DNA of 42,173 nt, taken from NCBI GenBank assembly GCA_035574985.1, contig DATLYG010000194.1, positions 1-42,173 of the forward strand. The letters are read 5' to 3'. Positions 1-34,862 of the stretch are shown here, in pieces (position 1 is the first letter of the stretch; each line of letters begins with the position of its first letter). The position numbers and the translations under genes are program-made. The notes beneath the pieces are model-generated. The model had not been told where the DNA came from. It saw only the letters and a program-made list of their open reading frames with translations, and did not search any database. Origin of the DNA: Thermoanaerobaculia bacterium (lineage in GTDB: Bacteria > Acidobacteriota > Thermoanaerobaculia > Gp7-AA8).

Positions 1-105
1 GAGATGCAGCGGAGCGCGGACGTGTCGTCGAGCATCGCCGTCGTCGGGCAGGCCGTGATCGTGCTCGTGCTCGTCGCCGCCGGGAGGTTCCGTTCCGATG
101 ATTGA
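1..105 (+). CDS. ABC transporter permease, C-terminal fragment (gene starts upstream of window)
   Basis: Frame 1 is open from base 1 to TGA at 103-105 (..SSSIAVVGQAVIVLVLVAAGRFRSDD*) with a hydrophobic TM-like tail. Its stop overlaps the ATG at 98 of the next permease (ATGATTGA), as in paired permease genes. Confidence 0.5.
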   Translation, partial: EMQRSADVSSSIAVVGQAVIVLVLVAAGRFRSDD

Positions 106-949
106 CGCGCTCGTGCAGTCGCTGCCGCTCGCCGTCGTCGCCTCCGTGCCGCTGCTGCTCGCGGTTCAGGGAGAGCTCGTCGTCCAGCGCGCCGGCATGA
201 TCAACCTCGGCCTCGAGGGAATGATGCTGACGGCGGCGATGAGCGCCGTCGTCGCGGCGGTGACGACGGGAAGCATCGCCGCGGGATTCGCAGGAGGCGT
301 CGCCGGCGCGTTCGCCGTCGCGCTCCTGTTCGGCCTCTTCGCCATCCGGCTCCGGGCCGATCAGATCGTCACCGGAACGGCGATCAACCTCCTCGCCCTC
401 GGTGTCACAGGATTCGTGTATCACGAATTCCGTGACAGCCGCCTCTTCACCGGACCGCTCCCGGCCGCCGGCAGCGGGCCGTTCGTGATCGCGGCGTGGA
501 TCGTCGCTCCTCTCGTCGTCGCGACGCTCCTCTGGCGGACCAGCTTCGGACTGCGCCTCCGCGCATGCGGCGAGAACCCGGCGGCCGTCGCCGCGAACGG
601 AGCCGGCGTCGCCCGTCACCGGCTCGCAGCGCTCGCGCTCGAAGCCCTCCTCGCCGGCTGCGGCGGCGCCTATCTGTCGCTGCTCCTCTCGAACGGCTTC
701 GCCGAAAACATGACCGCAGGGCGCGGCTTCATCGCTCTCGCGATCGTGATCTTCGGGCGGTGGAAGGTGTCGGGAGCGGTCGCAGGAACGGCACTCTTCG
801 GCGCCGCGGCGGCGATCCAGTATGCGATTCAGGCCGGCGGCTCCGGCGTCCCGTTCCACCTGCTCCTCGCCGTCCCCTACCTCGTGACGCTCGCCATCCT
901 CGCCGGAGTCACGGGTCACGTCCGCGCACCCGCCTCACTCGGCAGGTGA
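98..949 (+). CDS. ABC transporter permease (BMP-family nucleoside/simple-sugar type, YufQ/NupQ-like)
   Basis: 283-aa polytopic hydrophobic ORF. N-terminal LLLAVQGELVVQRAGMINLGLEGMM and C-terminal PYLVTLAILAG are typical of this permease family. High GC3. Confidence 0.8.
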   Translation: MIDALVQSLPLAVVASVPLLLAVQGELVVQRAGMINLGLEGMMLTAAMSAVVAAVTTGSIAAGFAGGVAGAFAVALLFGLFAIRLRADQIVTGTAINLLALGVTGFVYHEFRDSRLFTGPLPAAGSGPFVIAAWIVAPLVVATLLWRTSFGLRLRACGENPAAVAANGAGVARHRLAALALEALLAGCGGAYLSLLLSNGFAENMTAGRGFIALAIVIFGRWKVSGAVAGTALFGAAAAIQYAIQAGGSGVPFHLLLAVPYLVTLAILAGVTGHVRAPASLGR

Positions 950-954
950 GCGCA

Positions 955-2421
955 TCACCCCCGCCCCCACGGGCCCAGCACCTCCCACACCGAGCGCAGG
1001 CCCGCCGCCGCACTCCGCACCGCCGCCGGCTGATGCGGCATGGCGGCGAGGGCGGCGGCGATGAGGGGGACGGCCTCCGGCATCTGCGGAGCGAGATCGG
1101 CTTCGTGATCGGCGACGAAACGGGTGCTGACACGGCCGGCGCGGAATTCCGGATGCGTCACCACGCGGCGGAGGTACGGGATGTTCGTCTTCGTGCCGAG
1201 GATGACGTACTCGCGAAGAGCGCGATCGAGGCGCGCGATGCAGGCGTCGCGGTCGGCGGCAAAGCAGATCAGCTTCGCCAGGATCGGGTCGAAGCGGACG
1301 CTCACCTCGCTCCCTTCCGTCACGCCGGAGTCGACGCGCACGCCGGCACCCGCCGGCTCCGCGTAAACGGCGATCCTCCCGCTCTGCGGCAGGAAGCGAT
1401 CGTCGGGGTCCTCGGCGTAAATGCGCACCTCGATGGCGTGGCCGCGCCGGCTGAGGTCCTCCTGCTTCCACGGCAATGGGGAACCCGCGGCGACCTCGAT
1501 CTGCGCGCGCACGAGATCGACGCCCGTGATCAGTTCCGTCACCGGATGCTCCACCTGCAGGCGGGTGTTCATCTCGAGGAAGTAGAACTCCCCTTCCGGC
1601 GTGAGGAGGAACTCCACGGTGCCGGCGTTGCAGTAGCCGACTCCGCGCGCCGCGGCGATGGCCGCCCGCGCCATCCGCTGCCGCAGCTCTTCCCGGTAGT
1701 GCGGTGCGGGCGACTCCTCGACGATCTTCTGGTGCCGCCGCTGGATCGAGCAGTCGCGCTCGAACAGATGCACGATGTTTCCGTGCGCATCGCCGAAGAT
1801 CTGGAACTCGACGTGGCGTGGCTCTTCGATGTAGCGCTCCAGCAGCAGCCGGCCGTCTCCGAACGCCTTGATCGCCTCGCGCTGCGCCGACTCGATCGCG
1901 GCGCGAAGATCCTCCGCCGCGCGAACGATCTTCATCCCCTTCCCCCCGCCGCCGGCCGAGGCCTTCACCAGAAGCGGGAATCCGATCCGCCCCGCTTCCG
2001 CGGTCAGCGCTTCGACCGACTGATCCTCGCCGTCGTAGCCGGGCACCACCGGAACGCCCAGCGACTGCATCAACCGCCGCGACTCCGCCTTCGATCCCAT
2101 CGCCGCGATCGACTGCGACTTCGGCCCGATGAAGACGATGCCCGTTTCCTCGCACGCGGCAGCCAGTTCGGCACGCTCGGAGAGGAAGCCGTAGCCGGGA
2201 TGGATGGCGTCGGCACCGGCGGCCCGCGCGGCATCGATCACGCGGGCGACATCGAGGTAGCCGCCGCCGAGCGAGACGGCGTCGTCGAAGAAGCGGCGGA
2301 CGAAGCGGATGTCATCGTGATCGGAGTGACCGAGGACCGAAGAGATGCCCATCTCGCGGCACGCCCGCGCGATCCGGACGGCGATCTCGCCGCGATTCGG
2401 AACGAGGACTCTCCCGATCAC
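955..2421 (-). CDS. Biotin carboxylase domain protein (acyl-CoA carboxylase alpha-like; no BT/BCCP domains)
   Basis: RVLVPNRGEIAVRIARAC, ATP-grasp and BC C-terminal motifs (EMNTRLQVEHPVTE). I trimmed the start to GTG at 2421, which overlaps the TGA of the upstream hydratase (GTGA). No AMKM biotinylation motif. The protein ends about 45 aa after the BC domain. Confidence 0.85.
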   Translation of the reverse strand: MIGRVLVPNRGEIAVRIARACREMGISSVLGHSDHDDIRFVRRFFDDAVSLGGGYLDVARVIDAARAAGADAIHPGYGFLSERAELAAACEETGIVFIGPKSQSIAAMGSKAESRRLMQSLGVPVVPGYDGEDQSVEALTAEAGRIGFPLLVKASAGGGGKGMKIVRAAEDLRAAIESAQREAIKAFGDGRLLLERYIEEPRHVEFQIFGDAHGNIVHLFERDCSIQRRHQKIVEESPAPHYREELRQRMARAAIAAARGVGYCNAGTVEFLLTPEGEFYFLEMNTRLQVEHPVTELITGVDLVRAQIEVAAGSPLPWKQEDLSRRGHAIEVRIYAEDPDDRFLPQSGRIAVYAEPAGAGVRVDSGVTEGSEVSVRFDPILAKLICFAADRDACIARLDRALREYVILGTKTNIPYLRRVVTHPEFRAGRVSTRFVADHEADLAPQMPEAVPLIAAALAAMPHQPAAVRSAAAGLRSVWEVLGPWGRG

Positions 2422-3200
2422 GCCCACGGCGCCTTCTTTTTCTCCAGGAACGCCTTCATCCCGCTCTGACCCTCGGGACTGACGCGCCGCGTGGCGATGG
2501 TCTCGATCGTGTACGGCACCGCGTCTTCGTAGTCGTGCGACGCGACGTAGGCGATCAGCTTCTTGCACTCGCGGACCGCTTCGGGGCCGGACGAGCGGAG
2601 CTGCGCGACGGTCTCGTTCACCGCAGCGTCGAGATCGTCGATGGAATCGGCCAGCCGGTGCACGAGGCCGATCCGCAGCGCGCGCTCCGCGTCGAAGCGC
2701 TCGCCGGTGAGGAAGAGCGCGCGCGCGTGCGTCACGCCGATCTTCGCGATCACGTATGGCGAGATCACCGCCGGAAGGATCCCGAGCTTCACCTCGGAGA
2801 GACCGAACTTCGCGTCCCGGGTGGCGATGGCGATGTCGCAGACCGACACCAGCCCGACGCCGCCGCCGATCGCCGCTCCCTGAATGCGGCCGATTACCGG
2901 CAGGGGACAGTCATTCATCACGGCGAACATCTTCGCCAGCCTCGCCGAGTCGCGGATGTTCTCTTCGCGCGTGTACGACACCATCCGCGACATCCAGTTC
3001 AGATCGGCACCCGCGCAGAAGTTCGGTCCGCCGCCGCGGAGCACGACCGCGCGCGCCTCCGTTTTCGAGCCGATGTCTTCGAAGAGATCGATGGCCTCGG
3101 CGATCAACTCGTCGTTGAACGCGTTGTGGACTTCGGGGCGGTTGAGCGCGACGGTCAGAACGCCGCCGCTCTCCTCGACGGAGAGAGTCTTGTACGTCAT
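2418..3200 (-). CDS. Enoyl-CoA hydratase/isomerase family (methylglutaconyl-CoA hydratase-like)
   Basis: 260-aa crotonase fold: LNRPEVHNAF, FCAGADL, GAAIGGGVGL. Position upstream of the biotin carboxylase resembles liuC-liuD order. Confidence 0.85.
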   Translation of the reverse strand: MTYKTLSVEESGGVLTVALNRPEVHNAFNDELIAEAIDLFEDIGSKTEARAVVLRGGGPNFCAGADLNWMSRMVSYTREENIRDSARLAKMFAVMNDCPLPVIGRIQGAAIGGGVGLVSVCDIAIATRDAKFGLSEVKLGILPAVISPYVIAKIGVTHARALFLTGERFDAERALRIGLVHRLADSIDDLDAAVNETVAQLRSSGPEAVRECKKLIAYVASHDYEDAVPYTIETIATRRVSPEGQSGMKAFLEKKKAPWA

Positions 3201-3212
3201 GCGGCGCGCATT

Positions 3213-5663
3213 CTATGCGCTCCGGCGCCGCGGCTGCGTCGCGAACGGATAGGTCACCGTCAGCGTGTACGAGCCGTTCGGTCCCACCGCGCCCGCCGCG
3301 TCGATCCGCACGAAGACGTCTCCCGCCGCCGCCCCGACCGTCGCCTCGATCGTCGCCGACGCTCCCGCGGCGATGTCGCGCGTGGCGAGCGTGCCGGACG
3401 CCGACAGCAGCGTCACCCGGAGCGGCGTGTCCGTCGCCGCGACCGTGGCACGCAGCGTCCCCGCGGCGCTGACGCGGACCTTGAAGAAATCGGCGTCCGT
3501 CGCGCTGCAGATCCGTCCCGAGACCGTCTGTCCGCTGGCGAGGTAGCCGTACGCCGACGCCTGCGAATCGTTCGGCTCGTTCGGATCGAGGCACGCCGCC
3601 TGCCCGGAGCCGATCTCCCCGTTCGCGATCACCACCGCCTTCTGCGGCGGCGATGCGGCGACGCGCGTGCCCGTCACCACGATCCGGTACGAACCGGCGG
3701 GAGCGTTGACGATCTCCACGACCTCCATGTTGTCGACCGTGTTCACTCCCCGCGTGGCGGGCTGCGCCGGGTTCTTCGGGTCGAGCACCCACGGAAGCAC
3801 CGTCGCACCGCCGGGAGCGATCACCTTCACGTCGAGATCGTTGACCAGGGTCTTGTCGGCCAGCTCGTCGCCGAACAGAAGCACTTCCGGATCGGCCCAT
3901 CCGAGGACCACGCGGAAGAGATCCTGCGGCGCGGCGAGCGTCACGTCGAACTCCACCTGCGCCCCCTGCGCGACGTCGATGACCCGGATCCGCCTGCCCG
4001 TGCCGCCGTCCGCGATGATCAGGTCGGCCGACGCCTTCGCGTCCGGAATCCCGTAGCCGTAGGTGTAGTCGGGCCCCTGATTCCCCACTTCCTGCGCGCC
4101 GGCGGCGAGCAGCGTCTTCAGAATCTGTGCGTTCGGCGAGGCACCGGCGAAGCTCTTCCGCCACTGCTCGGTGAGCAGGGCGGCGATACCGGTCACGACA
4201 GGGGCCGCCATCGAGGTCCCCTGCGACGGGGCGTATTGATTCGACGGAACGGTCGAATAGGTGCCGACTCCCTTCGCCACGAAGTCGGGCTTGACGCGGC
4301 CGTCGCGCGTGGGGCCGCGCGAGCTGAAGCTGGCGATCGTGCGGCTCGAACCGACGGCGCCGACGGCGACGACGTTCTTCGCACTCGCCATCAGCCCGAC
4401 CGACTGGTACGGGCTCCGCACCGGATGGCGTACCGTTTCGCAGAACTTTGTCCCGGCCGTACAGGTCGCCGGGCAGTCGGTCCCCGACCCGTTCTCCGAG
4501 TAGCAGTACGTTTCCGTCGTGACGGTCTCGCCTTCGTCATCGACGTGGTAGTGCGAGTAAGGCGCGGCGGTGGGCCCGGTGACCGCTGCGGAGTTGCCCG
4601 ACGAGTGGACCAGCAGAACGCCGTTCTTGCGCGTGATCTTGTCGAGCGTCGCCGAGAGGATGTCGTAGCCACCGATGTACTCGTCGCCGCCGGTCCACGT
4701 CCACGACACGCTCCCGCTGCCCGACTGCCGCCATCCAAGGACGTATCCCCACGAGTTGTTGTCGGCGACCGACCCGATCGCGGGGAGTGTTTTCTCCTTC
4801 TGATCGAGCCACTCCCCCTCGTTGGCCAGATACTCGTGCAGCGTCGCCGCCGGCGCCATTCCCTTCGCCCGGGCATCGGCGCCGGAGGCGATCATGGTTC
4901 CGGCCACGTGCGTGGCATGGCTTGCGTTCCCCTGGCAGTCGTTGTCGCCCGTGGCACACGGCGCAACGTGTCCGATCAGGCGTCCGCCGAATTCCGGATG
5001 CGCCGTGTCGGCAGGGCCGAGTTCGAAGTACGACAGCACGACTCCCTGCCCGCTCAGACCGTAGGGGGCGGCCTGAACGAGGTGGACGTTCGCCATCGAC
5101 GCCGCCGTCGCATTGTGTGTCTCGGCGCGGAGCTTCGGCGCGCCCTGCACGACGAAGACGCGCTCGTCGGATGCGAGATCGATCACCGATCCGGACGGGA
5201 CTCGCGCCACGATCCGTCGCGGCCACACGAAATCGATGGCGAACGGGTCCTCGATCACGCCGCCCCGTTCCGCGATCACCGCCCGCGCTTCGTCGAACGA
5301 CGTGTCGTCGTGAAAGACCACATGCAGACGCGCCCACGGTTTCCCCCTCGCCGCCTCCGCATAGGCGCTCGGGTGGAGCTTCTTCGCGGTGGTGAGCGGC
5401 GTGAGCGAACGCACGAGGAGATCTCCCGCCCCCGCCTGCGCTCCGGCGATCCGGACGAGGTAGCGCCCGTTTGCCAGCTCCTTCTGAATCTCCCACCCTC
5501 GCCTCGCCAGTTCGGCGCGCTCCTCCCCGCTCAGCACGTGCTGCGGCTCGAGGATGAAGTGGCGTGCGCGCGGCACACGCTCCGCACCGGAGCGTGCGAC
5601 AGGCTGCGGCTCCGCAGCGATGAGAGCCGTGGTCAGAAGGAGGAGCGGCAGGATCGTTTTCAT
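3213..5663 (-). CDS. Secreted S8 subtilisin-like serine peptidase with C-terminal PPC (pre-peptidase) domain
   Basis: Start trimmed to ATG at 5663 ([19 protein letters not shown] signal peptide). SHATHVAG (His) and [11 protein letters not shown] (Ser) motifs. C-terminal [11 protein letters not shown]...DADFFKV is PPC-like. The longer track ORF (to 6227) would run through the tRNA gene. Confidence 0.85.
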
Positions 5664-5691
5664 GCGGAGAGAAATCGTGAGAACTGCTTCA

Positions 5692-5777
5692 TGGTGCCGG
5701 AGGTCGGACTCGAACCGACATGCCCTTGCGGGCGGAGGATTTTGAGTCCTCTGCGTCTGCCATTTCGCCACTCCGGC
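5692..5777 (-). tRNA. tRNA-Leu (anticodon CAA), CCA encoded
   Basis: Reverse complement reads GCCGGAG-TG-GCGAAATGGCAGACGC-A-GAGGA-CTCAAAA-TCCTC-long variable arm-GTCGG-TTCGAGT-CCGAC-CTCCGGC-ACCA. It has a 7-bp acceptor stem, a T-loop TTCGAGT, and an anticodon loop CU-CAA-AA. Confidence 0.9.
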
Positions 5778-5791
5778 GTCGGTTGCCGCTT

Positions 5792-7066
5792 TCAGCTCGC
5801 CGCCCCCCCTGAAAGCCGGGAGCCGGGAGCTGCGAGCTGTCGTTGCGCGGCGGCATGCAACTCCTCGTCCGTCAGAATCCGGTTCGTCGACTTGGCGAGC
5901 TGGAAGATCTCCTTCGCCAGCGACTCCTCGGTCGGATAGCCGTGACTGGCCAGCCAGTAGACGACGTTCGACAGACCGCACATCGGTCCGACCTCGATGA
6001 TCTGTTCGAGACCGAACATCCCCGCGGGGACACCGGAGTAAACGCGGTCTGCGAGCCACTCGCTTCCCTTCTTCTTCGCCTTGATGATCGCCGCGGCGTG
6101 GACGCCCGTGCCGGTCCGGAACGCGTCGCGGCCGATGACCGGATACTGATCGGGAAGTGATACGTGCGTGGCACGCGAAACGTACTGAACGTACTGCGGA
6201 AGTTTCGTCAGATCGTTGTCGATCCACCCCATCAGCTTGAGATTGACCATCAGCAGATCGATCGGGGTGTTCCCGACGCGCTCGCCGATGCCCATCGCGC
6301 AGCCGTGCACGCGGTCGGCCCCCGCCTCGAGCGCGGCGATGGAGTTGATCACCCCGAGGCCGCGGTCCTGATGCCCGTGCCAGTCGACCTTCACTTCGGG
6401 GTTCCGCCTGCGGACGATGTCACGCACGAAGCGGATCAGGTTCCGCACGCCCCACGGCGTCGCATGACCGACCGTGTCGCAGACACAGACGCGCATCGCA
6501 CCGGCGTCGATCGCCGCGGAGTAGAGCTTCTCGACGTCCTCCGGCTTCGCGCGCGTCGTGTCCTCGGTCACGTACATGACCGGCAGACCTTCGCCGACGG
6601 CGAACTTCACCGCCTTGACCGATTGCTGGATGATCCAGTCGAGATCCCACTCCTCTGCGAACTGGCGGATCGGCGAGGAACCGATGAACGTGCAGGCCTC
6701 GATCGGGATCCCGACGCGCTGCGAGATCTCGGCGATCGGGCGGATGTCGTTCTCGTGCGTGCGCGCTGCGCAGTTCGCGGCGATCTGCAGCTTCTGGCCG
6801 GCGATCTCGCGCGCCAGGCGCTCGACCGAGCGCTGCACGTGCGGCCCCGCACCCGGCAGACCGATGTCGGCCGAGTCGATCCCGATGTCGTTCATGAAGT
6901 GGAGGATCGCGACCTTCTCGTCGAGCGTCGGATCGGTCACCGACGGCGACTGCAGGCCGTCGCGCAGCGTCTCGTCGTCGAACTCGATGCGGCGGGACGA
7001 CTCGCGCTGCGGTTTCTCGCCGGCGAGGTTCCAGTCGTAGATCAGGTGCTCGAGGTTTTCGTTCAT
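5792..7066 (-). CDS. HMGL-like (DRE-TIM metallolyase) protein, LeuA-type 2-isopropylmalate/homocitrate synthase family
   Basis: 424 aa. IEFDDETLRDGLQSPSV and HGHQDRGLG..N..AA motifs. GGAGG lies 8 nt upstream of the ATG at 7066. Confidence 0.8.
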   Translation of the reverse strand: MNENLEHLIYDWNLAGEKPQRESSRRIEFDDETLRDGLQSPSVTDPTLDEKVAILHFMNDIGIDSADIGLPGAGPHVQRSVERLAREIAGQKLQIAANCAARTHENDIRPIAEISQRVGIPIEACTFIGSSPIRQFAEEWDLDWIIQQSVKAVKFAVGEGLPVMYVTEDTTRAKPEDVEKLYSAAIDAGAMRVCVCDTVGHATPWGVRNLIRFVRDIVRRRNPEVKVDWHGHQDRGLGVINSIAALEAGADRVHGCAMGIGERVGNTPIDLLMVNLKLMGWIDNDLTKLPQYVQYVSRATHVSLPDQYPVIGRDAFRTGTGVHAAAIIKAKKKGSEWLADRVYSGVPAGMFGLEQIIEVGPMCGLSNVVYWLASHGYPTEESLAKEIFQLAKSTNRILTDEELHAAAQRQLAAPGSRLSGGAAS

Positions 7067-7103
7067 GGCAGCGCCTCCGCGAACTCCACCGCAGTGAACG
7101 CGA

Positions 7104-7880
7104 TCATTTTCCCTTGAAATTCGCCTGCCGCTTCTCCAGAAACGCGTTCATCCCCTCTTTCATGTCCTCGGTGGCGCAGAGGAGCCCGAAGAGCGTCGCC
7201 TCGAGGAACTGCCCCTCCTCGAACGGCATCTCGCTTCCGTTCATCACGGCTTCGATCGAGGCGCGAACCGCCACCGGTCCCCGCGACATGATCCTGCGCG
7301 CCATCTCCTCGGCCGCGGCCATGAGCTGGTCGTGCGGGACGACCTTGTTGACGAGCCCGATCCGCTCCGCCTCCGCGGCGGAAATGCGGTCGCCGGTACA
7401 GATCAGTTCCAGCGCCTTCGCTTTCCCCACCAGCCGCGCCATTCGCTGTGTGCCGCCATACCCGGGAATGATGCCAAGAGTCACCTCGGGAAGGCCGATC
7501 TGCGCCTTCTCCGACGCTATCCGGATGTGACACGCGAGCGCCAGCTCGCAGCCGCCGCCCAGCGCAAAGCCGTTGATCGCGGCGATGACCGGCTTCGGGA
7601 AACGCTCGATGCGCAGAAGGATCTCCTGCCCCCGCTCCGAAGTTTCCTTCCCGGAGATGGGTGTCTTCTGCGCGAGTTCGTTGATGTCGGCGCCGGCGAC
7701 GAACGCCTTCTCGCCGGCACCGGTGACGATGACCGCCCTGACCGCGTCGTCCGTCCGCGCCTCGTCGAACACCCGCCCGATCTCCTCGACGGTCTGCGCG
7801 TTCAACGCGTTGAGGACCCTGGGGCGGTCGATCGTGAGAATGAGGATTCCGTCTTTGTTTTCCGTCCTGATGTTTTCCAT
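7104..7880 (-). CDS. Enoyl-CoA hydratase (crotonase, short-chain)
   Basis: Start trimmed to ATG at 7880 (MENIRTENKDGILILTIDRPRVLNAL). AFVAGADI, INGFALGGGCELALAC, and a C-terminal EGMNAFLEKR. Confidence 0.85.
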   Translation of the reverse strand: MENIRTENKDGILILTIDRPRVLNALNAQTVEEIGRVFDEARTDDAVRAVIVTGAGEKAFVAGADINELAQKTPISGKETSERGQEILLRIERFPKPVIAAINGFALGGGCELALACHIRIASEKAQIGLPEVTLGIIPGYGGTQRMARLVGKAKALELICTGDRISAAEAERIGLVNKVVPHDQLMAAAEEMARRIMSRGPVAVRASIEAVMNGSEMPFEEGQFLEATLFGLLCATEDMKEGMNAFLEKRQANFKGK

Positions 7881-8762
7881 GGCGAAGAGTTTATCCCGCG
7901 CCCACCGGCCACGGGAGGGAAGCCGCCCCCGCTCGCAACCGCGCGAGTCCGCATCATTCGCGAGCATGCGCCCGATGGTCACGAGTAGGCACAGATCGTT
8001 CTCGAATGGTTCGGTTCCTTCCAGAGAAGCGATGTGGAAAGCGCGGAAAGCGCAAACAGCGCGATTCCCGCCCTTCCCACAGCGCCCATCGCTACCGAAG
8101 AGAGCAACGGCGAACCATCCGGCCCATCACGCATGATGACTTGATCGAAATTGGGGGGACCGTCAGATCGAACGCCGGAACCGCGAACTCCACCGTACCG
8201 TTCGCCGGCAAGAAGTCCTCTTCGTCGGTCACACCCATTCGAGCCGCTTGCTTGCCATGCGTTCGCCCCGGTCGGAAAAGAACGACTCGCCGCTCGGGAG
8301 AGGTGGCCCGAACCTTCAACTTACTGTCGCCGTCGGAGGAATAGTGAACCCCGACGACACCATCGACAGCCTGCCGCGAGTCGAAGAGCGGAGATCTCCG
8401 GGCCAGCGTTGCGATGGAGTTGACGGATGCCCGTCGCAACCTTCACGATGCTTCCGCGGGAAGGGAATCCTCGCGACCGCCGACTACGACGTCCCGTTCA
8501 GGCTGCGGGTCCCCGATCCGCGCGGAGAAGCGGCCGCTCGTGCCGGCCGTGACCCGCGTGAACCGAACGGGAGGCTGCAGTCGGTGGCACGGGCACAGAA
8601 CCCCGCTATGACCGCCTCATCGAGGCCTTCCGAGACGGGAATTCCGATGGTCCTCGATCCATCATTCAACGAGAACGAGCCAGTGGTGAATACGCCAGGA
8701 GAAGCACTCGACTGCTTCCTCGGAACGAAGATGGACCTGCTGGTGTCGGGGGGCCCGACGGG

Positions 8763-9482
8763 GTGGCGCTGCCAATGAAGCGATTCCTCCGGGCCGTGCT
8801 CCGCCTCGTTCCTCGGGGAACCGTTGTGCGCGTTTTCTCGGGACAGCTTCGCGGGGCACGGTGGCTGATGCACTCGGCTACTCACGGGTGCTGGCTGGGG
8901 ACATACGAGCGTGACAGCCAGGCCGTGTTTGCGCGGCTCGTGAGTCGAGGCGACGTGGTTCTCGACATCGGCGCGAACGTCGGATTCTTCACGATTCTCG
9001 CCTCGAGACTGGTCGGCCGGGAGGGAACGGTCTGCGCATTCGAGCCGCTTCCGCGAAATGTCGAACTTCTGAAGGAGCACGTTCGGTTGAATGCCGCGTC
9101 GAACGTGCGGGTCTTTGCCGTTGCGGTTGCGAGCACGATCGGTCGGGCGAGCTTCGAGGTCGCCGGCAGCCCGTCGATGGGACGACTCGCGGAAACCGGC
9201 TCCATCGAGGTCGAGACGGCGTCGCTCGATTCTTTTTGGCGGTCAGGAGCACTGTCGCTTCCGACCTTCATGAAAATCGATGTCGAAGGGGCGGAGTACG
9301 AGGTCCTGACCGGTGCCCGCGAACTCCTGGACGCCGCGCGTCCGGCGATCCTCCTCGCGGCGCACGGATATGTCCAACACGATGCCTGCGTTGCGCTTCT
9401 CAAAGATGCCGGATACGACATCCAAACGATCCGCGACGGAACCGCGGACGGCGACTACCTGCTCCTGGCCAGGGCGCAGTGA
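8763..9482 (+). CDS. FkbM-family SAM-dependent methyltransferase
   Basis: VVLDIGANVGFFT (motif I), AFEP, FMKIDVEGAEYEVL. The start is GTG at 8763 or ATG at 8775. Confidence 0.8.
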   Translation: MALPMKRFLRAVLRLVPRGTVVRVFSGQLRGARWLMHSATHGCWLGTYERDSQAVFARLVSRGDVVLDIGANVGFFTILASRLVGREGTVCAFEPLPRNVELLKEHVRLNAASNVRVFAVAVASTIGRASFEVAGSPSMGRLAETGSIEVETASLDSFWRSGALSLPTFMKIDVEGAEYEVLTGARELLDAARPAILLAAHGYVQHDACVALLKDAGYDIQTIRDGTADGDYLLLARAQ

Positions 9483-9820
9483 GAGCGCGAACACCCTTCC
9501 CCGGAATGGCAGGTCACCTCGAAGAAGAAGATCCCGTCCCTGCGGATCGCGGCGGCGAGCGGCCGGCTGCTTCGTTGCCGCTCCTCGACGATCTTCCGCA
9601 TCGCCTGCGTCGCGGCGCCTCGCATCCGGCCGCTCGGCGCCGCAACAAAAGGCGGATATTGATGAAGCACTACACCAGGGAGACAGTCTGAGAACCGAGC
9701 GCGGTTCTTGCCCGACAGTGGGGCGGTCGCCGCAGGGCGTCTGTTGAGGCTCTACAGGAGTTCCGTCGCAGACCGGGCATCAGACTGGAAAGTCCCGAGT
9801 CGTGTGACACGACTGAGGAA

Positions 9821-29013: not shown

Positions 29014-29256
29014 TCACTCACCGATGATCTTGATCAGCACCCGCTTGTCGCGCCGCCCGTCGAACTCTCCGTAGAAGATCTGCTCCCACGGTCCGAAGTC
29101 GAGCTTCCCGTTCGTGATCGCGACCACCACCTCCCGCCCCATGATCTGGCGCTTGTGGTGCGCATCGCCGTTGTCCTCCCCGGTGCGGTTGTGGTGATAG
29201 CGCTCGGGACTCGGATCGTACGGCGCGAGCCACTCGAGCCAGCGTTTGTAGTCCTC
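29014..29256 (-). pseudogene. yjbQ: YjbQ/UPF0047 (secondary thiamine-phosphate synthase family) gene fragment, C-terminal 80 codons
   Basis: [80 protein letters not shown] is the conserved C-terminal two-thirds of the family. The track ORF extension to 29352 ([14 protein letters not shown]...) is not family-like. Confidence 0.8.
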
Positions 29257-29285
29257 GGAGCCCATTCCCAAGTGTTTCAGCCGGA

Positions 29286-29325
29286 GTGCTGCGGCGCGGC
29301 ACGGGCGTTCCTTCGGCCGAGCAGC
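29286..29325. repeat. Imperfect palindromic element related to the 32736-32823 inverted repeat
   Basis: GTGCTGC-N13-CGTTCC-TTCGG-CCGA-GCAGC shares the GTGCTGC, TTCGG, CGTTCC and CCGA(A)GCAGC blocks with the arms of the large inverted repeat. GCTGC and GCAGC can pair. Confidence 0.4.
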
Positions 29326-29337
29326 GGAGAATGTCAG

Positions 29338-31695
29338 ATGGCAAAAAGGCAACGCAGGATACCGCGAGCGTCTTCATCAACGACGACGAACGCGGCCTGC
29401 CCGGTGTTTGTGGACATGACGGAGTATGTCTATGAGCAGTCCTTTCCGAGCGGGCTTGACACGTACAAGGTGCGCGAGCAGAACAAGGTTGGGATCACGA
29501 TCACGAAGGACTACTGCACGTCACCAGACGGGCGTTGTGGCATCACGTACGCGGGGTCCTCGGTCACGGTGACGTACACGACCGGCATCGAGGCGGGTGT
29601 CTACTCGGGGAACAACCAGGTCGGCGCGATTCACGGCCCCACCGAAATGCCGCTCGTCGTGCAACTCTCTGCATTCGACGGGACGTCGCTTGCCGGCAAG
29701 GCGGTGGAGTTCAAGGTGACGAGCGTCCCCACGCGCGCGACGGCGACGACGATTGGCGCGACGGAGTCGGGCACCACCACGACGTACACTGCGACCGCCG
29801 ACGCCTCGGGTCGCGCGCAGGCGACGATGGTGTTCGGGAACAAGGATGGCACGTACACCGTCGAGGCGATCAGTCCGCTGAGCAACACGAAGGTTCCGGC
29901 GACGTTCACGGCCACCGCACGTGTGCCGACATCAGTGCGGATCGCGCGACGCGACGAGAATATGGAGTTCGATGTGTACAGCAACCCGTACGTCGTCCTC
30001 CCGCTGCAGGGCGCGCGCTTCCGAGCGATAGGATACGACGGAGGTGGACGCATCGGACCGGTCCGCGCGGACTGGAAAACCAGCGTTGCTAAGGGCACAA
30101 CAGAGCCAGGAGGTGCCACGCTTGCCCCCATCACGGCGTCATCGTTTACGTCATTCACCCCGACAGCATTCGGCAAGCTCACCCTAGAGGCGACGACTAG
30201 CCCGCGCATTTCCGGCGTCTCCACCGCAAAGGCGCCGGTGGAGATCCGCACGGGCGTCTTCCTCGACGTGGACAACAACTTCGTCCCGTCAGGACCGGAG
30301 GATGACCTGCCGACCTTTCTGCCTGGCGCGATCGGCGGATCGTCCGTGCTGCCGGCCCTGATGCCGCAGCAGGTGCAAGTCCACGTACTGACGCCGCCGA
30401 GCATGTCGGGTACGGTGCAGTTTGAGATTCTGGATACATCGAGCTTTCCAGGGCTTGCAATGAACTACCCTGCCAGTGGTGCAGTGAGCGAGGATGACAC
30501 GTACTTTCATGACGGCGTGTCGCGCGTAAGGGCGCTGCCGCCGGCGAGCCCAGCCGTCTCAGGAGACTCCGTGGCAACGCTCTTCGTCAATGATTACGCG
30601 GCGCGCGCAAAGCTCCGCGTCACCGTCACGCCGACGGGTCGTACGCCCATCGTTCTCGGACCGATCGCCATACCGACGGATGCGAACCTTAACGGCCTCC
30701 CTGACGCCTCATGGAGTCCCAACACGACGCCCGATACCTCATTAGCCGAAACACAAGACATTGACGCGCAACCAGCAGCGAGCGGGGACCCGACGCTTGG
30801 TTTGACCGGCGACGGGTTGACGGTGCTTGAGGAGTACCGCGGATTCGTCGTTGGCGGAGTGCATCGGCGAACGAACCCAGACAAGAAAGATCTCTTTATA
30901 CGCATGGATGCCGCCCTAACGCCATTTGCAGACTTTCTGAACTCGCTTCCGCTTGATCTGCACTACGTAGAATCCGCGGAAGTGAGGGGCGACGGACCCT
31001 CCGTGATTAATCCTACTCGATGCGATCCCGATCCTACTCGACCCTGCATGATTGGGTCGAGCGCTCAGCGCGCTGCTCGCTTCAAGGAACGCCGAGGAAT
31101 AGGCTGGCGGCGCGATTCCGCGGGCCAACTCTATACCGACACAAGATTATGGGGTGCCGTATACTTTGACGGCCACGACACCTTCGCGGCGGACGATCGT
31201 CTAACTGATGCGGATGTCAAAAGCACCAACGAATCGCTCTACGCCGACATTTACACAGATAATCACAGCAAACGCGCGATTCTGACGAACGATGGCATTA
31301 TTGACGATCCGAACGCGCAGATCTGTACTGCGATGAATCAGCGAACGACGTTTTACAAGTGCGACGACGTGACTCTAAGGTATCCAACGACAGGCACGCC
31401 GCCGGCCGCCGTTGAGCCCGGGCCTGACGACTGGCAGACTACCGCTATGGGGAACGACACCTACGGTAATTACTTGCCAAATGGGTGTCCCGCAACGAAC
31501 ACATTGTTCCTGGGCCCGATCGCCATCGACATGCTGAAGCGGAATACCATCGCACACGAGGGAGGCCACTTGCTCGACATGAAACACTACGACACCTGCA
31601 GCCCTGCGGGCGTCATGGGTCTGCCATTCTTACCGATACCGGACAACTACACCGCAACTGATCTCGCGCAGATCCGTGTGCATCGCAAATACTGA
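29338..31695 (+). CDS. Large Ig-like (Big_1-type) domain protein with C-terminal metzincin-like zinc-protease motif
   Basis: Long ORF with lower [26 protein letters not shown]...[26 protein letters not shown] is invasin/Big_1-like. [13 protein letters not shown] is a calcium-binding-repeat-like segment. [16 protein letters not shown] (HExxHxxDxxH) is followed by GVMG (a possible Met-turn). ATG at 29338 has GGAG about 8 nt upstream, and ATG at 29416 is an alternative start. No signal peptide. Confidence 0.7.
29361..29399 (+). pseudogene. yjbQ: YjbQ gene fragment, 13 middle codons, inverted relative to the other two fragments
   Basis: ACC GCG AGC GTC TTC ATC AAC GAC GAC GAA CGC GGC CTG translates to [13 protein letters not shown]. 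This is the conserved family segment expected between ..NAMHI and (H)EDY.., but it is encoded on the plus strand. Confidence 0.75.
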
Positions 31696-31707
31696 GGAGG
31701 ATCAGAG

Positions 31708-32697
31708 ATGAGATCGCGTACTGTCTCGACGATTCTGCTTATTCTCGTGTCGATAATCGCGCAATCAGCGACGGCTGGCGTCATAGTATCCGGCTGGGTT
31801 AAGTACCATCAGTTGTTTTTCAGCGAACCACATCCTGGCGTGACCGCTCCGCAGCTCGTCTTTGCCGACGAGAAGCCGCGCCTTGAGATACGCGTCTTCA
31901 TGAACCCCCTCCGTCGTGGTCCAAAATATGAGAATGTTAAGGAACACGAACAGATCACGTTCGGAACAACGCCGTGGTGGACGAACGCCTGGCTGCGGTT
32001 CGAGAACCACACGACTGGAGAAACGCGCACGATACCCGCAAGCGACTTGCGGTTTGTTGCAGAGCGGTCTGACCGAGAAGGTGGTCGAGAAAGCGTGAAT
32101 GCGATTCGCGATGACGAAATCGTCTATGCCGAATTTGATTTGCCACCCTTCGCCCTGGGTGACTACCACCTCATCGCCGAATTGAGGGTACCTCAGGTCG
32201 GGTCGCAGCCCGAGCAGATGTTTCGATCTGATACACCCTTCGCATTCAGCGTTCGGCGTGGCGATGAGGACGTTGATACGCGCCGTGCTTACTTGCGGGC
32301 GCGAGCCCAACGGCTCGCAGCAACGCCAGGAGTCGGGTTCGATCTGTTTCGCACTACGGTCGAGGAGCTCATGCAGCTCGAGCCCAAGAATCCGGGGAAC
32401 CTGGAGTGGCTGGGGGATCTCGCTGTTTCGCTGTCTACCGCTGAAGAAGCAACAGCCTATTACGATCGCACGCTCGAGCTGATCAGGACGAATCTCATTG
32501 AGAAATTTGGCCCTGCCGAAGCTTGGTCAAGCGAGGTGAAGGAGTTTTGGTCGCAGCGGGAGCGAGCCTTGACCGTTGTCCGTCGCGCAAGCGCGCTAGC
32601 CAAACCAGGAAGCTGGATGTCCGTCCTAAACGACGGGCGATCGAAACGCATTCTGTTGTACACGCCTGGTGAACACAGGGCACGGCACATCGACTAA
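31708..32697 (+). CDS. Secreted hypothetical protein (N-terminal beta-rich region, C-terminal helical/TPR-like region)
   Basis: AGGAGG lies 7 nt upstream of the ATG. Signal peptide [24 protein letters not shown]. Lowest GC in the window. It starts 12 nt after the stop of the metalloprotease-like gene. I recognise no family. Confidence 0.75.
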
Positions 32698-32735
32698 CGT
32701 AACAGTTAACTGAAAACGACGTCGGATGTCGCAGT

Positions 32736-32823
32736 TGTGCTGCTTCGGTCGGAACGTGACGGATCCTCCTGCCGTGTGCGTAACACGGCGGTTGGTCCGT
32801 CACGTTCCGACCGAAGCAGCACA
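32736..32823. repeat. Perfect 28-bp inverted repeat with 32-nt spacer containing a nested 7-bp hairpin
   Basis: TGTGCTGCTTCGGTCGGAACGTGACGGA (32736-32763) is the exact reverse complement of 32796-32823. The spacer contains GCCGTGT-gcgta-ACACGGC (32771-32789). The element starts 38 nt after the stop of the preceding gene. Confidence 0.9.
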
Positions 32824-32878
32824 GTTCCTTTGAAGAAAAACGGCGGGTCATCGAAAACATCACCGAGCGCATCGTCAT

Positions 32879-33016
32879 GATGTGCATCGCATTCACGAGG
32901 CAGAGCCCTTCCTTCACGCCGCTCTCGCGCACCTCGCGCTCGACCTCCCGGGTGATGTTGACGAACTCCATCCGCTCCTTCGTGTGGAACGTCAGCCGTT
33001 TCGTATGCGACTTCAT
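32879..33016 (-). pseudogene. yjbQ: YjbQ/UPF0047 gene fragment, N-terminal 46 codons
   Basis: [46 protein letters not shown] is the conserved family N-terminus. After Ile46 the reading frame continues into non-homologous sequence ([10 protein letters not shown]...) through the inverted repeat. Confidence 0.8.
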
Positions 33017-33026
33017 GGCGCGAAGC

Positions 33027-34862
33027 CTACTGCAGCTTCGGCAGCTTCGCTCCCTTCCTCAGCACCGGCTCGAAGAGATCGCCGACCTTCGCCAGACGCT
33101 CCGGCATCGTCCGGAGGTTGAACTTCCCCGGATCGAGATCCTTCCCGACCTCCTCCCACTTCAGCGGCGCCGATACCGGAGCACCGTCGACGGCGCGAAG
33201 CGAATACGGCGCGACGACGGTCTTTCCGTATGCGTTCTGCATGCAGTCGAGATACAGCCGTCCGCGGCGCCGGGTCAGGCTCCGCTCCGTCGTCATCCAC
33301 GGCACGCGGGCGGCGACGGCGCGAGCAATCCCGCAGGCAAACTCTGCGGCATCCTCGTGCGTGTAGCCGGCTGCGAGCGGGACGAAGATGTGGATCCCCC
33401 GTTTTCCCGACGTCTTCGGCACGCTCGGCAGCTCGAGGGTCTCGAGCAGTCCCCGCATGACGTTTGCCGCATCGATGGCCTGCTCGATGCCTTTCCCCTT
33501 CGCCGGATCGAGATCGAACACGATCCAGTCGGGTTGTTCGAGCTGCTTCGCGCGCGAGGCCCACATGTGGATGGTCAGGACGGACATCTGGGCCAGCCAC
33601 CGCAGTGCGGCCGGACTGTCGACGACCAGATGGCGCACGGCCTTTCGCTCGCCGCCGCGCGTGGGCGTCATGACCGTGGTCAGCCAGCCGGGCGCTTCCC
33701 TGCCGAGGTGCTGGTGAAACCACGACGGCTTGTCGATTCCCTCGTTCCAGTGCTCGAGCGCCAGGGGGCGGTCACGCAGCGAGCGGAGCATCGGTTCGGC
33801 CATCGCCTCGTAGTAGTCCGCCACGTCCTGCTTGGTGATCCCGTCGCGCGGATAGAGGAGCCGTCCCGGATTCGTCAGGATCACCTCGGGCGCCTTCGCC
33901 TTCCGCGTCCGCTTCGGCTTCGGCTCGTGAACGGGGCGCTCGCGAACGACCTCCTCGGGCGCCTTGTCGGGCCGCAGTCCGAGGAACGACGGGTGGCGGA
34001 GGCGATGATCGGACGTCCACTCCGTGAAGGCGACCTGCGCGACGAGGCGGGGCCGCACCCACGTCGCATCGCGCGCGCGAGGCGGGTCCTTCACCGGCGG
34101 CGACGGGACCGCGTCGCGCGACAGCTCGCTCCACAGCTCCTTCCGCAGCTTCGACGAAAACCCGGTCCCTACCTTTCCGGCGTAGCGAAAGGCGCCGTCA
34201 TCGTCGCGTACCGCGAGATGAAGCGAGCCGATCTCGTTCGGAGACGCACTGCTCGGCTGGTAGCCGACGATCACGAACTCCTGGGTGTTGAGCGCCTTGA
34301 TCTTCAGCCACTGCTTCGAACGCCGCATCTCGTAGATCGAATCGCGCCGCTTCGCGATGATCCCCTCGTACCCCTCGATCGCGGCGCGGCGCAGTGCCTC
34401 TTCCCCATCGCCCTTCAGACGCTGCGCCAGCGAGACCCCCGCAGGCGGGTTGCGCAGGATCTTCTCCAACGCCCCTCGCCGCTCCTCCCACGGCCGGTTG
34501 CGGAGGTCCTCGCCGTCGAGCCAGAGCAGGTCGAACAGAACGATGCGCGCTCGATGCGCCCCTCCCTGCAGAAGCTGGAAGCGCGGAACACCCTTCTCGT
34601 CGACGGCGACGATTTCCCCGTCGACGACCGCCTCTCGAACCTTCAGCTTCGCCAGCGCCTCGGCAACGTGCGGAAAGCGGTCGGAGAGATCGATCTGATT
34701 GCGGCTCCACAGCGCGACTTCACCGCTGCAAATCGCGGCAATCGCCCGGAACCCGTCGTACTTGAGTTCGTACACCCAGTTCCCGTCGTCTTCGGGCGGA
34801 GCGCCGGCGAGCGTCGCCAGCATGGGAGGAAAGAATCGCCTGATGAGCTGTTGCGGTTTCAC
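33027..34862 (-). CDS. ligD: ATP-dependent DNA ligase LigD (ligase + polymerase/primase domains, Lig-Pol order, no PE domain)
   Basis: YELKYDGFR (KxDG adenylation motif), then EGIIAKR. The C-terminal half carries LigD-Pol motifs ([45 protein letters not shown]). 611 aa. Confidence 0.9.

Follow-up and report, generated by a model that had tools for sequence, protein, structure and literature searches.

A putative mobile-element remnant inside yjbQ of a Thermoanaerobaculia bacterium, with a candidate protease-partner module as cargo

A two-gene insert between the pieces of yjbQ

The stretch of DNA analysed here, hereafter the window, is a contig of 42,173 nucleotides (C194; DATLYG010000194.1) from a metagenome-assembled genome (MAG; 2.45 Mb, 273 contigs, 79% complete) whose kin are Thermoanaerobaculia (Acidobacteriota). 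It holds two neighbouring genes that sit between two pieces of a minus-strand yjbQ (UPF0047). Gene 1 is an open reading frame (ORF) of 785 aa (29338-31695, plus strand), and gene 2 encodes an exported partner of 329 aa (31708-32697, plus strand); the ORF calls agree with a preliminary description of this DNA, made from the letters alone, on the coordinates of both genes and on the 12-nt gap between them. We consider it probable that the 3.6 kb within yjbQ are the decayed remnant of a site-specific mobile element with a two-gene module, whose partner protein is a cognate periplasmic inhibitor or immunity protein. The cargo would be one copy of a widespread module. An intact gene 1 would encode, in this order, a signal peptide, an N-terminal domain, tandem Big_1-like immunoglobulin (Ig)-like domains, a beta-sandwich, the motif DGLxxxEEYRGF, and a metzincin-like domain, and its product would be exported by the Sec pathway. 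In the window, gene 1 would have lost its first ~110 codons, and a 143-bp block (the element end, called X, plus 13 yjbQ codons) would have been flipped in place against the truncation point, creating an accidental in-frame ATG. Gene 2 would bind and neutralise its cognate protease domain in the periplasm, as AprI does for the serralysin AprA, and the window would then keep an orphan protease-partner module.

Neither protein has a match in Pfam, NCBIfam, or PADLOC. A word-based homologue search with gene 1 gave no matches, and the family surfaced only in an exhaustive HMMER search, which retrieved 898 representative proteins with E <= 1e-3, of which 60 had E <= 1e-30. The loci compared below were drawn from genome and metagenome collections and from relatives; they include the Logan contigs L018, L002, and L163 from other samples (the last from SRR32741836). 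A literature search found no description of the family and no match for the motif EEYRGF. Judging from these searches, the gene 1/gene 2 family appears to be widespread and to lie outside the curated families.

The protease domain and gene 2 appear to move as a unit

The insert deviates from its host in composition. Host windows of 1.9 kb have a GC content of 0.664 +/- 0.018 (minimum 0.632), and host genes have a GC content at third codon positions (GC3) of 0.85-0.90. Both values fall in two steps along the insert, from the N part of gene 1 (29401-30828; GC 0.634, GC3 0.77) to its C-terminal domain (30829-31695; GC 0.562, GC3 0.64) and gene 2 (GC 0.569, GC3 0.63), with the second step inside gene 1, at position 30829. 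The preliminary description had called both genes low in GC and had proposed a GC and codon analysis as a check of their foreign origin. The deviation is real in GC and in GC3, but it comes in two steps, and the low GC of gene 2 is shared by only the C-terminal third of gene 1.

The second step coincides with the edge of a segment found nearly unchanged elsewhere. L018 shares 98.9% identity with positions 30829-31792 of the window, and L002 shares 99.5% with positions 31468-32735. This near-identity is confined to 30829-32735; the flanks, a DUF1080-like gene on the left and an ABM-like gene on the right, show no relation to the window, nor were they found in the MAG. The low-GC module thus delimited (30829-32735, plus strand, GC 0.564) contains the protease domain and gene 2, and would move as a unit. 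Its left breakpoint falls within the EEYRGF codons of the junction motif DGLxxxEEYRGF (30808-30846, plus strand), whose D, E, Y, R, G, and F are invariant in 75 sequences. Between the window protein and its best relative (P0006), identity amounts to 50% upstream of the motif, 70% over the motif itself, and 22% downstream of it.

The same unit emerges from comparisons among relatives. In a set of 53 triplets of N part, C-terminal domain, and partner, the similarity of the partners correlates with that of the C-terminal domains (r = 0.89; partial correlation given the N part, 0.76), and its partial correlation with the N part, given the C-terminal domain, is 0.06; kinship inflates these values, and their informative part is the contrast only. 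Modules lacking the N-terminal region also exist. L018 is itself an orphan module that starts inside EEYRGF. L079 (3305-9878) contains, in order, a full gene 1 relative, a partner, an orphan C-terminal domain (7017-8009), and two more partners, and L086 and L076 likewise hold orphan catalytic-domain ORFs and extra partner genes. These data suggest that recombination at the EEYRGF junction exchanges the protease domain and gene 2 as one piece, and that the two are inherited jointly.

The preliminary description had taken the two-gene cassette as one foreign unit; the unit that moves would be only this 1.9-kb piece. Its broader claim, that the DNA is foreign, agrees with the position within yjbQ, the deviating composition, the near-identical copies in other contexts, and a patchy distribution: the family is present in 11 of 201 genomes of the window's class and in 8 of the 48 of its own family. 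Tandem arrays were also observed in L086, L076-L078, L083, and L088.

Gene 2 directly follows gene 1 in several phyla

A co-occurrence of the two genes elsewhere had been proposed as a test of the pair, and they do form a conserved pair. In searches with an iterated hidden Markov model (HMM), 67 of the 93 unique gene 1 relatives that have 700 bp or more of sequence after them are immediately followed by a gene 2-like ORF in the same orientation. So are 7/7 close relatives that have a catalytic domain. An HExxH follows the junction motif in 103 of 112 gene 1 relatives. The loci include Verrucomicrobiota, Poribacteria, Myxococcota, Planctomycetota, and archaea of the Thermoproteota. The archaeal pair is found in L053, L040, and L057, from Geothermarchaeota/Nitrososphaeria MAGs, and could reflect interdomain transfer or contaminated bins. 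Plasmid and phage collections contained no relatives.

The upstream neighbours are not conserved, and the only gene that recurs there, an anti-sigma/TPR-like one, does so at 7 of 91 loci. In a Thermoanaerobaculia subgroup (L023, 3424-5510; L079, 1540-2715), the pair is preceded by genes resembling an extracytoplasmic function (ECF) sigma factor and a zf-HC2/TPR anti-sigma factor. These genes may regulate the pair, and they are absent from the window's remnant.

The protein encoded by gene 2 starts with a signal peptide (residues 1-23: MRSR, a hydrophobic stretch, and ATA|G). In its AlphaFold 2 (AF2) model (predicted local distance difference test [pLDDT] 87.9, predicted template-modelling score [pTM] 0.81), the signal helix is followed by an Ig-like sandwich (24-183), TPR-like helices (189-296), and a small C-terminal beta unit. 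The clean signal peptide and the division into a beta-rich N-terminal and a helical C-terminal half had been recognised from the sequence; the fold, called unknown at that stage, can now be described as an Ig-like sandwich joined to TPR-like helices. Foldseek against the PDB gave generic Ig-like matches only (query-normalised template-modelling score <= 0.25), and the small beta-barrel fold of the serralysin inhibitor family (I38, AprI/Inh) is not that of the gene 2 model. The window protein has no Pfam match, whereas its relatives have weak to moderate matches to TPR_16, TPR_14, and TPR_19, and the gene 2 profile cross-matches TPR proteins of its own genome over profile positions 186-250. Compared with its copy in L002 (241-1230), all five coding differences change the amino acid; these are too few for significance, and their direction fits diversifying selection.

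By analogy with the systems discussed below, we infer that gene 2 encodes a cognate periplasmic inhibitor or immunity partner. It might instead encode a dedicated helper that acts as a chaperone or foldase in the periplasm, as an adaptor for secretion or anchoring, or as a subunit that recruits substrates. Domains of the TPR and Ig-like kinds are general scaffolds for protein binding, and a helper specific to the catalytic domain would explain the tight adjacency and the co-variation equally well. Yet multi-copy gene 2 arrays and orphan modules are a usual feature of immunity genes but not of chaperones, and in the window gene 2 is intact next to a gene 1 that has lost its 5' end. We regard the helper as rather unlikely, if the most serious of the alternatives.

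The C-terminal domain of gene 1 resembles metzincins

Near its C-terminus, gene 1 encodes an 11-residue zinc-binding motif followed by a conserved Cys and a Met in a Met-turn-like GVMG (31555-31617, plus strand). H740, E741, H744, H750, C754, and M760 are invariant in the 11 full-length relatives, with C754 and M760 standing 4 and 10 residues after the third His. The usual Gly position of HExxHxxGxxH varies in the same sequences (D, N, G, V, or L), and the consensus of 75 sequences is AHELGHxxxxxH. Metzincins are defined by the motif and the Met-turn (Bode et al. 1993, as cited in PMC1266349). The extended zinc motif with its third His ligand is present in gene 1, and HMMER aligns M760 to the Met-turn Met of adamalysins.

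We searched the PDB with two profiles, one built from the 11 full-length relatives and one from 75 catalytic domains. In both, the catalytic region matched metzincins only (E 2e-4 to 2e-2), namely adamalysins, ADAMs, ADAMTS, snapalysin, serralysins, myroilysin, ulilysin, and fragilysin, with alignments that span the active-site helix and the Met-turn. Between one and four of the 75 relatives have sub-threshold Pfam matches to Reprolysin_5, Peptidase_M10, and Peptidase_M7 (E >= 3e-4), and one matches archaemetzincin (E 3.8e-4). At curated peptidase thresholds (Pfam Peptidase_M10, Reprolysin, Peptidase_M7, and M43; NCBIfam), gene 1 itself has no match. Hence, the C-terminal domain is weakly assigned as a metzincin-like zinc protease domain, and it would presumably be an active protease in intact family members. 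The earlier suggestion of a metzincin pattern with Asp at the Gly position is in line with the motif and with PDB matches restricted to metzincins.

The remainder of the protein is beta-rich. The AF2 model of 29398-31692, computed from a 47-sequence alignment, has a pLDDT of 84.7 and a pTM of 0.77. In model numbering, it consists of Ig-like domains (65-290), a beta-sandwich (324-425), and an alpha/beta domain (476-765) with strands at 498-503, 520-524, and 560-565, helices at 505-516 and 753-756 (C-terminal), and the HExxH helix at 707-725. The top Foldseek matches of the whole model are the Ig arrays of FdeC, InvD, and intimin; they are the only kind returned, the Ig domains having swamped the result, so that the catalytic domain was not placed by fold. 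Pfam Big_1 has no match in gene 1, and the PDB profile search gave a weak match to intimin.

Gene 1 is most likely a truncated pseudogene

Full-length relatives of gene 1 (P0006, P0008, P0010, P0011, and P0014) have 850-965 aa and begin with a signal peptide followed by an N-terminal domain. Alignments to them begin at residues 16-21 of gene 1, which correspond to residue ~110 of the relatives. The window's copy lacks these ~110 N-terminal codons, and with them the signal peptide and about one half of the first domain. Cys21 (29398-29400) marks the exact end of the flipped yjbQ piece. From phmmer alignments, AF2, and Foldseek, the native part of the gene (29398-31695, plus strand) would therefore be a 5'-truncated member of a secreted family. 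The first ~60 residues of the model have a pLDDT of 43-58, which is in keeping with an incomplete domain. Elsewhere in the MAG as assembled, neither an N-terminal fragment nor another copy of gene 1 was found.

The ORF opens at ATG 29338, with a GGAG 8 nt upstream. The preliminary description had read the gene from there as a chimeric protein. The ATG lies inside block X and its position reads GTG in L163, so it would be a fortuitous start in the conserved non-coding end block of a mobile element, and the gene a 5'-truncated copy. Other parts of that description hold: gene 1 has no signal peptide, its present N-terminus is a product of rearrangement (the flipped block and the truncation), and the homologues, which it had proposed to check for a signal peptide missing here, do have one. 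Gene 1 is thus most likely a non-exportable pseudogene next to an intact gene 2.

One could argue that gene 1 still works, with translation starting at ATG 29338 or ATG 29416 and yielding a protease with a new N-terminus that stays in the cytoplasm or leaves it by a non-classical route, given that the 2.3-kb frame is fully open and that a GGAG stands 8 nt before the first ATG. The open frame is, however, explained by a recent event, as the ~99% identity to L018 and L002 implies. All full-length relatives have a signal peptide and ~110 more residues, what is left of the first domain comes out disordered in the model, and the conserved cysteines suggest an extracytoplasmic protein. The ATG belongs to a block kept beside unrelated sequences, and no sigma-70-like promoter was found upstream. 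A working gene 1 therefore seems very unlikely.

yjbQ is disrupted, and one end of the insert appears flipped

The yjbQ gene is found in three pieces. Its 3' part (29014-29256, minus strand) covers codons E61 to the stop (61-140; Pfam PF01894 positions 43-117, E 8.7e-21), with 86-89% DNA identity to the intact orthologues of genomes G011 and G001. The 5' part (32880-33016, minus strand) covers codons M1-I46 (PF01894 positions 1-26), with 88-97% identity to orthologues. Between them, 39 nt of the yjbQ core (29361-29399, plus strand) encode the 13 residues T47-L59, inverted relative to the rest of the gene; across this region, intact orthologues in related genomes have 15 residues and then (P/R)GL-H-EDY. 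The pieces are colinear with intact orthologues and cover 416 nt, out of 423 nt in the orthologue; no more than 1-3 nt are missing. The gene is disrupted here. The frame of gene 1 reads the 39-nt core in another register, as (P) plus 12 residues, as the preliminary description had seen.

L163 offers a comparison for the inverted piece. This contig was reached through P0156, which a search with the yjbQ 3' part had found, and its yjbQ (88% DNA identity) is interrupted at the same codon boundary, I46|T47. Its positions 9563-9711 are 80.5% identical over 149 nt to X plus the core (window 29256-29403). In L163, these run straight into the rest of yjbQ, which continues uninterrupted. Because X and the core are contiguous there, in the same relative orientation, a block of 143-147 bp (X and 13 yjbQ codons) appears to have been flipped in place in the window relative to an L163-like state, and everything between X and codon ~112 of gene 1 appears to have been lost. 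On the same grounds of contiguity and orientation, we rejected a scenario in which the insertion took place at His60 and the large segment 29361-32879 was then inverted. The rearrangement has clean junctions (0-3 nt of overlap), and a gene for LigD, the ligase of nonhomologous end joining, lies directly beside the rearranged yjbQ (33027-34862). It is a speculation that end-joining of three breaks took place, which would fit the clean junctions.

That the whole arrangement is an assembly artefact, with a contig made chimeric from strains or species and no real insertion or inversion, is hardly credible even in a MAG as fragmented and incomplete as this one, because the contig leaves yjbQ and cleanly re-enters it, with order and strand preserved and almost nothing missing, as a chimeric join would not; moreover, the X-T47 junction is present independently in the sample of L163, and the junctions have no shared repeat of k-mer length.

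Block X and the other end of the insert

Block X (29257-29360, plus strand), which holds the GGAG and ATG 29338, appears to be the conserved end of a mobile element, inverted in place. Its last ~45 nt recur beside comM-like fragments (CPCG...) in two genomes of the window's family, G258 (L176, 5925-6075, on C43) and G271 (L177, 5990-6140, on C372), where the block reads ...GTCAGATGGCAAAAAGGCAxCGCAGGAAT. An intact comM lies ~4 kb from the end block in L176. The heptamer CAACGAC is located 17-18 nt from the junction in yjbQ and comM-like targets alike. Because X recurs beside comM-like fragments, with CAACGAC at the same offset, we take it as the probable end of a mobile element with a sequence preference; its copies suggest a family of site-specific elements at yjbQ and comM-like sequences.

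In L163, other genes occupy more than 9.5 kb ahead of the block, and the one closest to it is an XRE-type helix-turn-helix gene. This stretch (1-9671), in place of the yjbQ 5' part, encodes a 764-aa signal-peptide protein with a C-terminal HEIVH and then another signal-peptide protein. The two resemble gene 1 and gene 2 in arrangement and were not detected as homologous by the family HMMs. AraC-, XRE-, and TPR/anti-sigma-like genes are found in the same stretch.

To the right of the module, an 88-bp element resembling a miniature inverted-repeat transposable element (MITE; 32736-32823) has perfect 28-bp terminal inverted repeats and AGTT/AGTT flanks, and begins exactly where the identity to L002 ends. 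Its arms match (~34/42 nt) the end of an insertion sequence on contig C23 of the MAG (L017, 1-141), whose transposase gene begins (MASARKKRCQF...) at the contig edge. With this match, we dropped the idea that the 88-bp hairpin is an integron cassette or attC. That the 104-bp piece (29257-29360) holds a degenerate copy of the MITE is not supported either: the alignment scores 16, and shuffled sequences have a median of 15 and a 95th percentile of 19. The MITE is separated from the yjbQ 5' part by 56 nt (32824-32879) that match nothing elsewhere and may be the other end of the insert. A core-like repeat at the junction with the yjbQ 5' part (32863-32879) is not significant, since 14% of shuffles reach its score.

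Comparison with known systems

The operons of serralysins (MEROPS M10B/I38) are among the closest known systems. In these, aprA is followed by aprI, the gene of a periplasmic inhibitor (PMC1475658). As would hold for the pair described here, a secreted metzincin gene precedes a gene for a signal-peptide protein acting on the protease in the periplasm, and serralysins are among the PDB profile matches of gene 1. The differences are substantial. The gene 1 family has no RTX or type I secretion signals and would depend on Sec for export; gene 1 has no Pfam Peptidase_M10 match; and the partner is a 33-kDa protein with Ig-like and TPR regions instead of a ~10-kDa beta-barrel inhibitor. We know of no modular exchange or orphan copies in apr operons.

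These last two traits are found in polymorphic toxins (CdiA-CT/CdiI, Rhs-CT/RhsI, MafB/MafI), in which a conserved N part and a divergent C-terminal domain are joined at a short motif (VENN, (Q/E)LYN, or DPxGL there; EEYRGF here). The cognate gene is immediately downstream in both cases, and both have orphan modules of C-terminal domain and partner and are mosaic at the conserved junction; orphan toxin-immunity modules recombine at a homologous region (PMC4436062). MafB, like the gene 1 family, depends on a signal peptide. Unlike these toxins, gene 1 has no trafficking domain of type V, VI, or VII secretion systems and no RHS or haemagglutinin repeats. The partner is exported here, whereas most immunity proteins are cytoplasmic, and toxicity and immunity are putative for the present family.

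Two further comparisons concern single regions of gene 1. Its C-terminal domain shares with adamalysins/reprolysins and other metzincins (M12B, M7, M43, M10C) the extended zinc motif with a third His and then a Met in a conserved C..M context, but differs from them by Asp, Asn, or other residues at the motif Gly and, in the model, by an insert of ~180 residues between the backing helix and the active-site helix. The Big_1 arrays of intimin, invasin, and FdeC are the top Foldseek matches of the model; gene 1, in contrast to these proteins, has no outer-membrane beta-barrel anchor, and its array ends in a protease domain. Overall, the family is an undescribed variant of known themes, the secreted metzincin with a cognate partner and the cassette exchange of polymorphic toxins.

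Several observations weigh against a site-specific element whose cargo is a metzincin-like protease with its inhibitor or immunity protein. The metzincin assignment rests on weak profile matches around the motif. The gene 2 HMM was iterated and includes TPR, hence some distant partners may be the product of drift. Linkage alone could make the similarity of gene 2 correlate with that of the C-terminal domain. The C-terminal domains of 103 of the 112 relatives belong to one HExxH fold class and are divergent, unlike the unrelated folds of polymorphic toxins. Foldseek revealed no similarity of gene 2 to known protease inhibitors. Finally, no recombinase was found among the ORFs near the X ends in L163, L176, and L177.

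We still favour the decayed element with its protease-inhibitor or immunity module as the probable explanation. A bolder version is possible but doubtful: a new Sec-dependent, polymorphic-toxin-like system in which cassettes made of a metzincin-like warhead and a periplasmic Ig-TPR immunity protein are exchanged at DGLxxxEEYRGF, the window holding an orphan module brought into yjbQ by the site-specific element that X marks. As part of this same tentative proposal, the system might range over soil Acidobacteriota, Verrucomicrobiota, Myxococcota, Poribacteria, and some archaea of the Thermoproteota.

Implications

For annotation, gene 1 should become a 5'-truncated pseudogene and yjbQ a disrupted gene. 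The locus would also document a family of mobile elements at yjbQ and comM-like sequences, with no recognisable recombinase in the sampled DNA. The junction motif would provide a practical marker in searches for protease-partner cassettes. Among soil and sediment microbes that are hard to culture, the pair is conserved in several phyla. Should gene 2 encode a cognate inhibitor or immunity protein, the family would constitute a new class of exchangeable protease-antidote cassettes and would give a handle on interbacterial competition, or on the controlled export of proteases, in Acidobacteriota.

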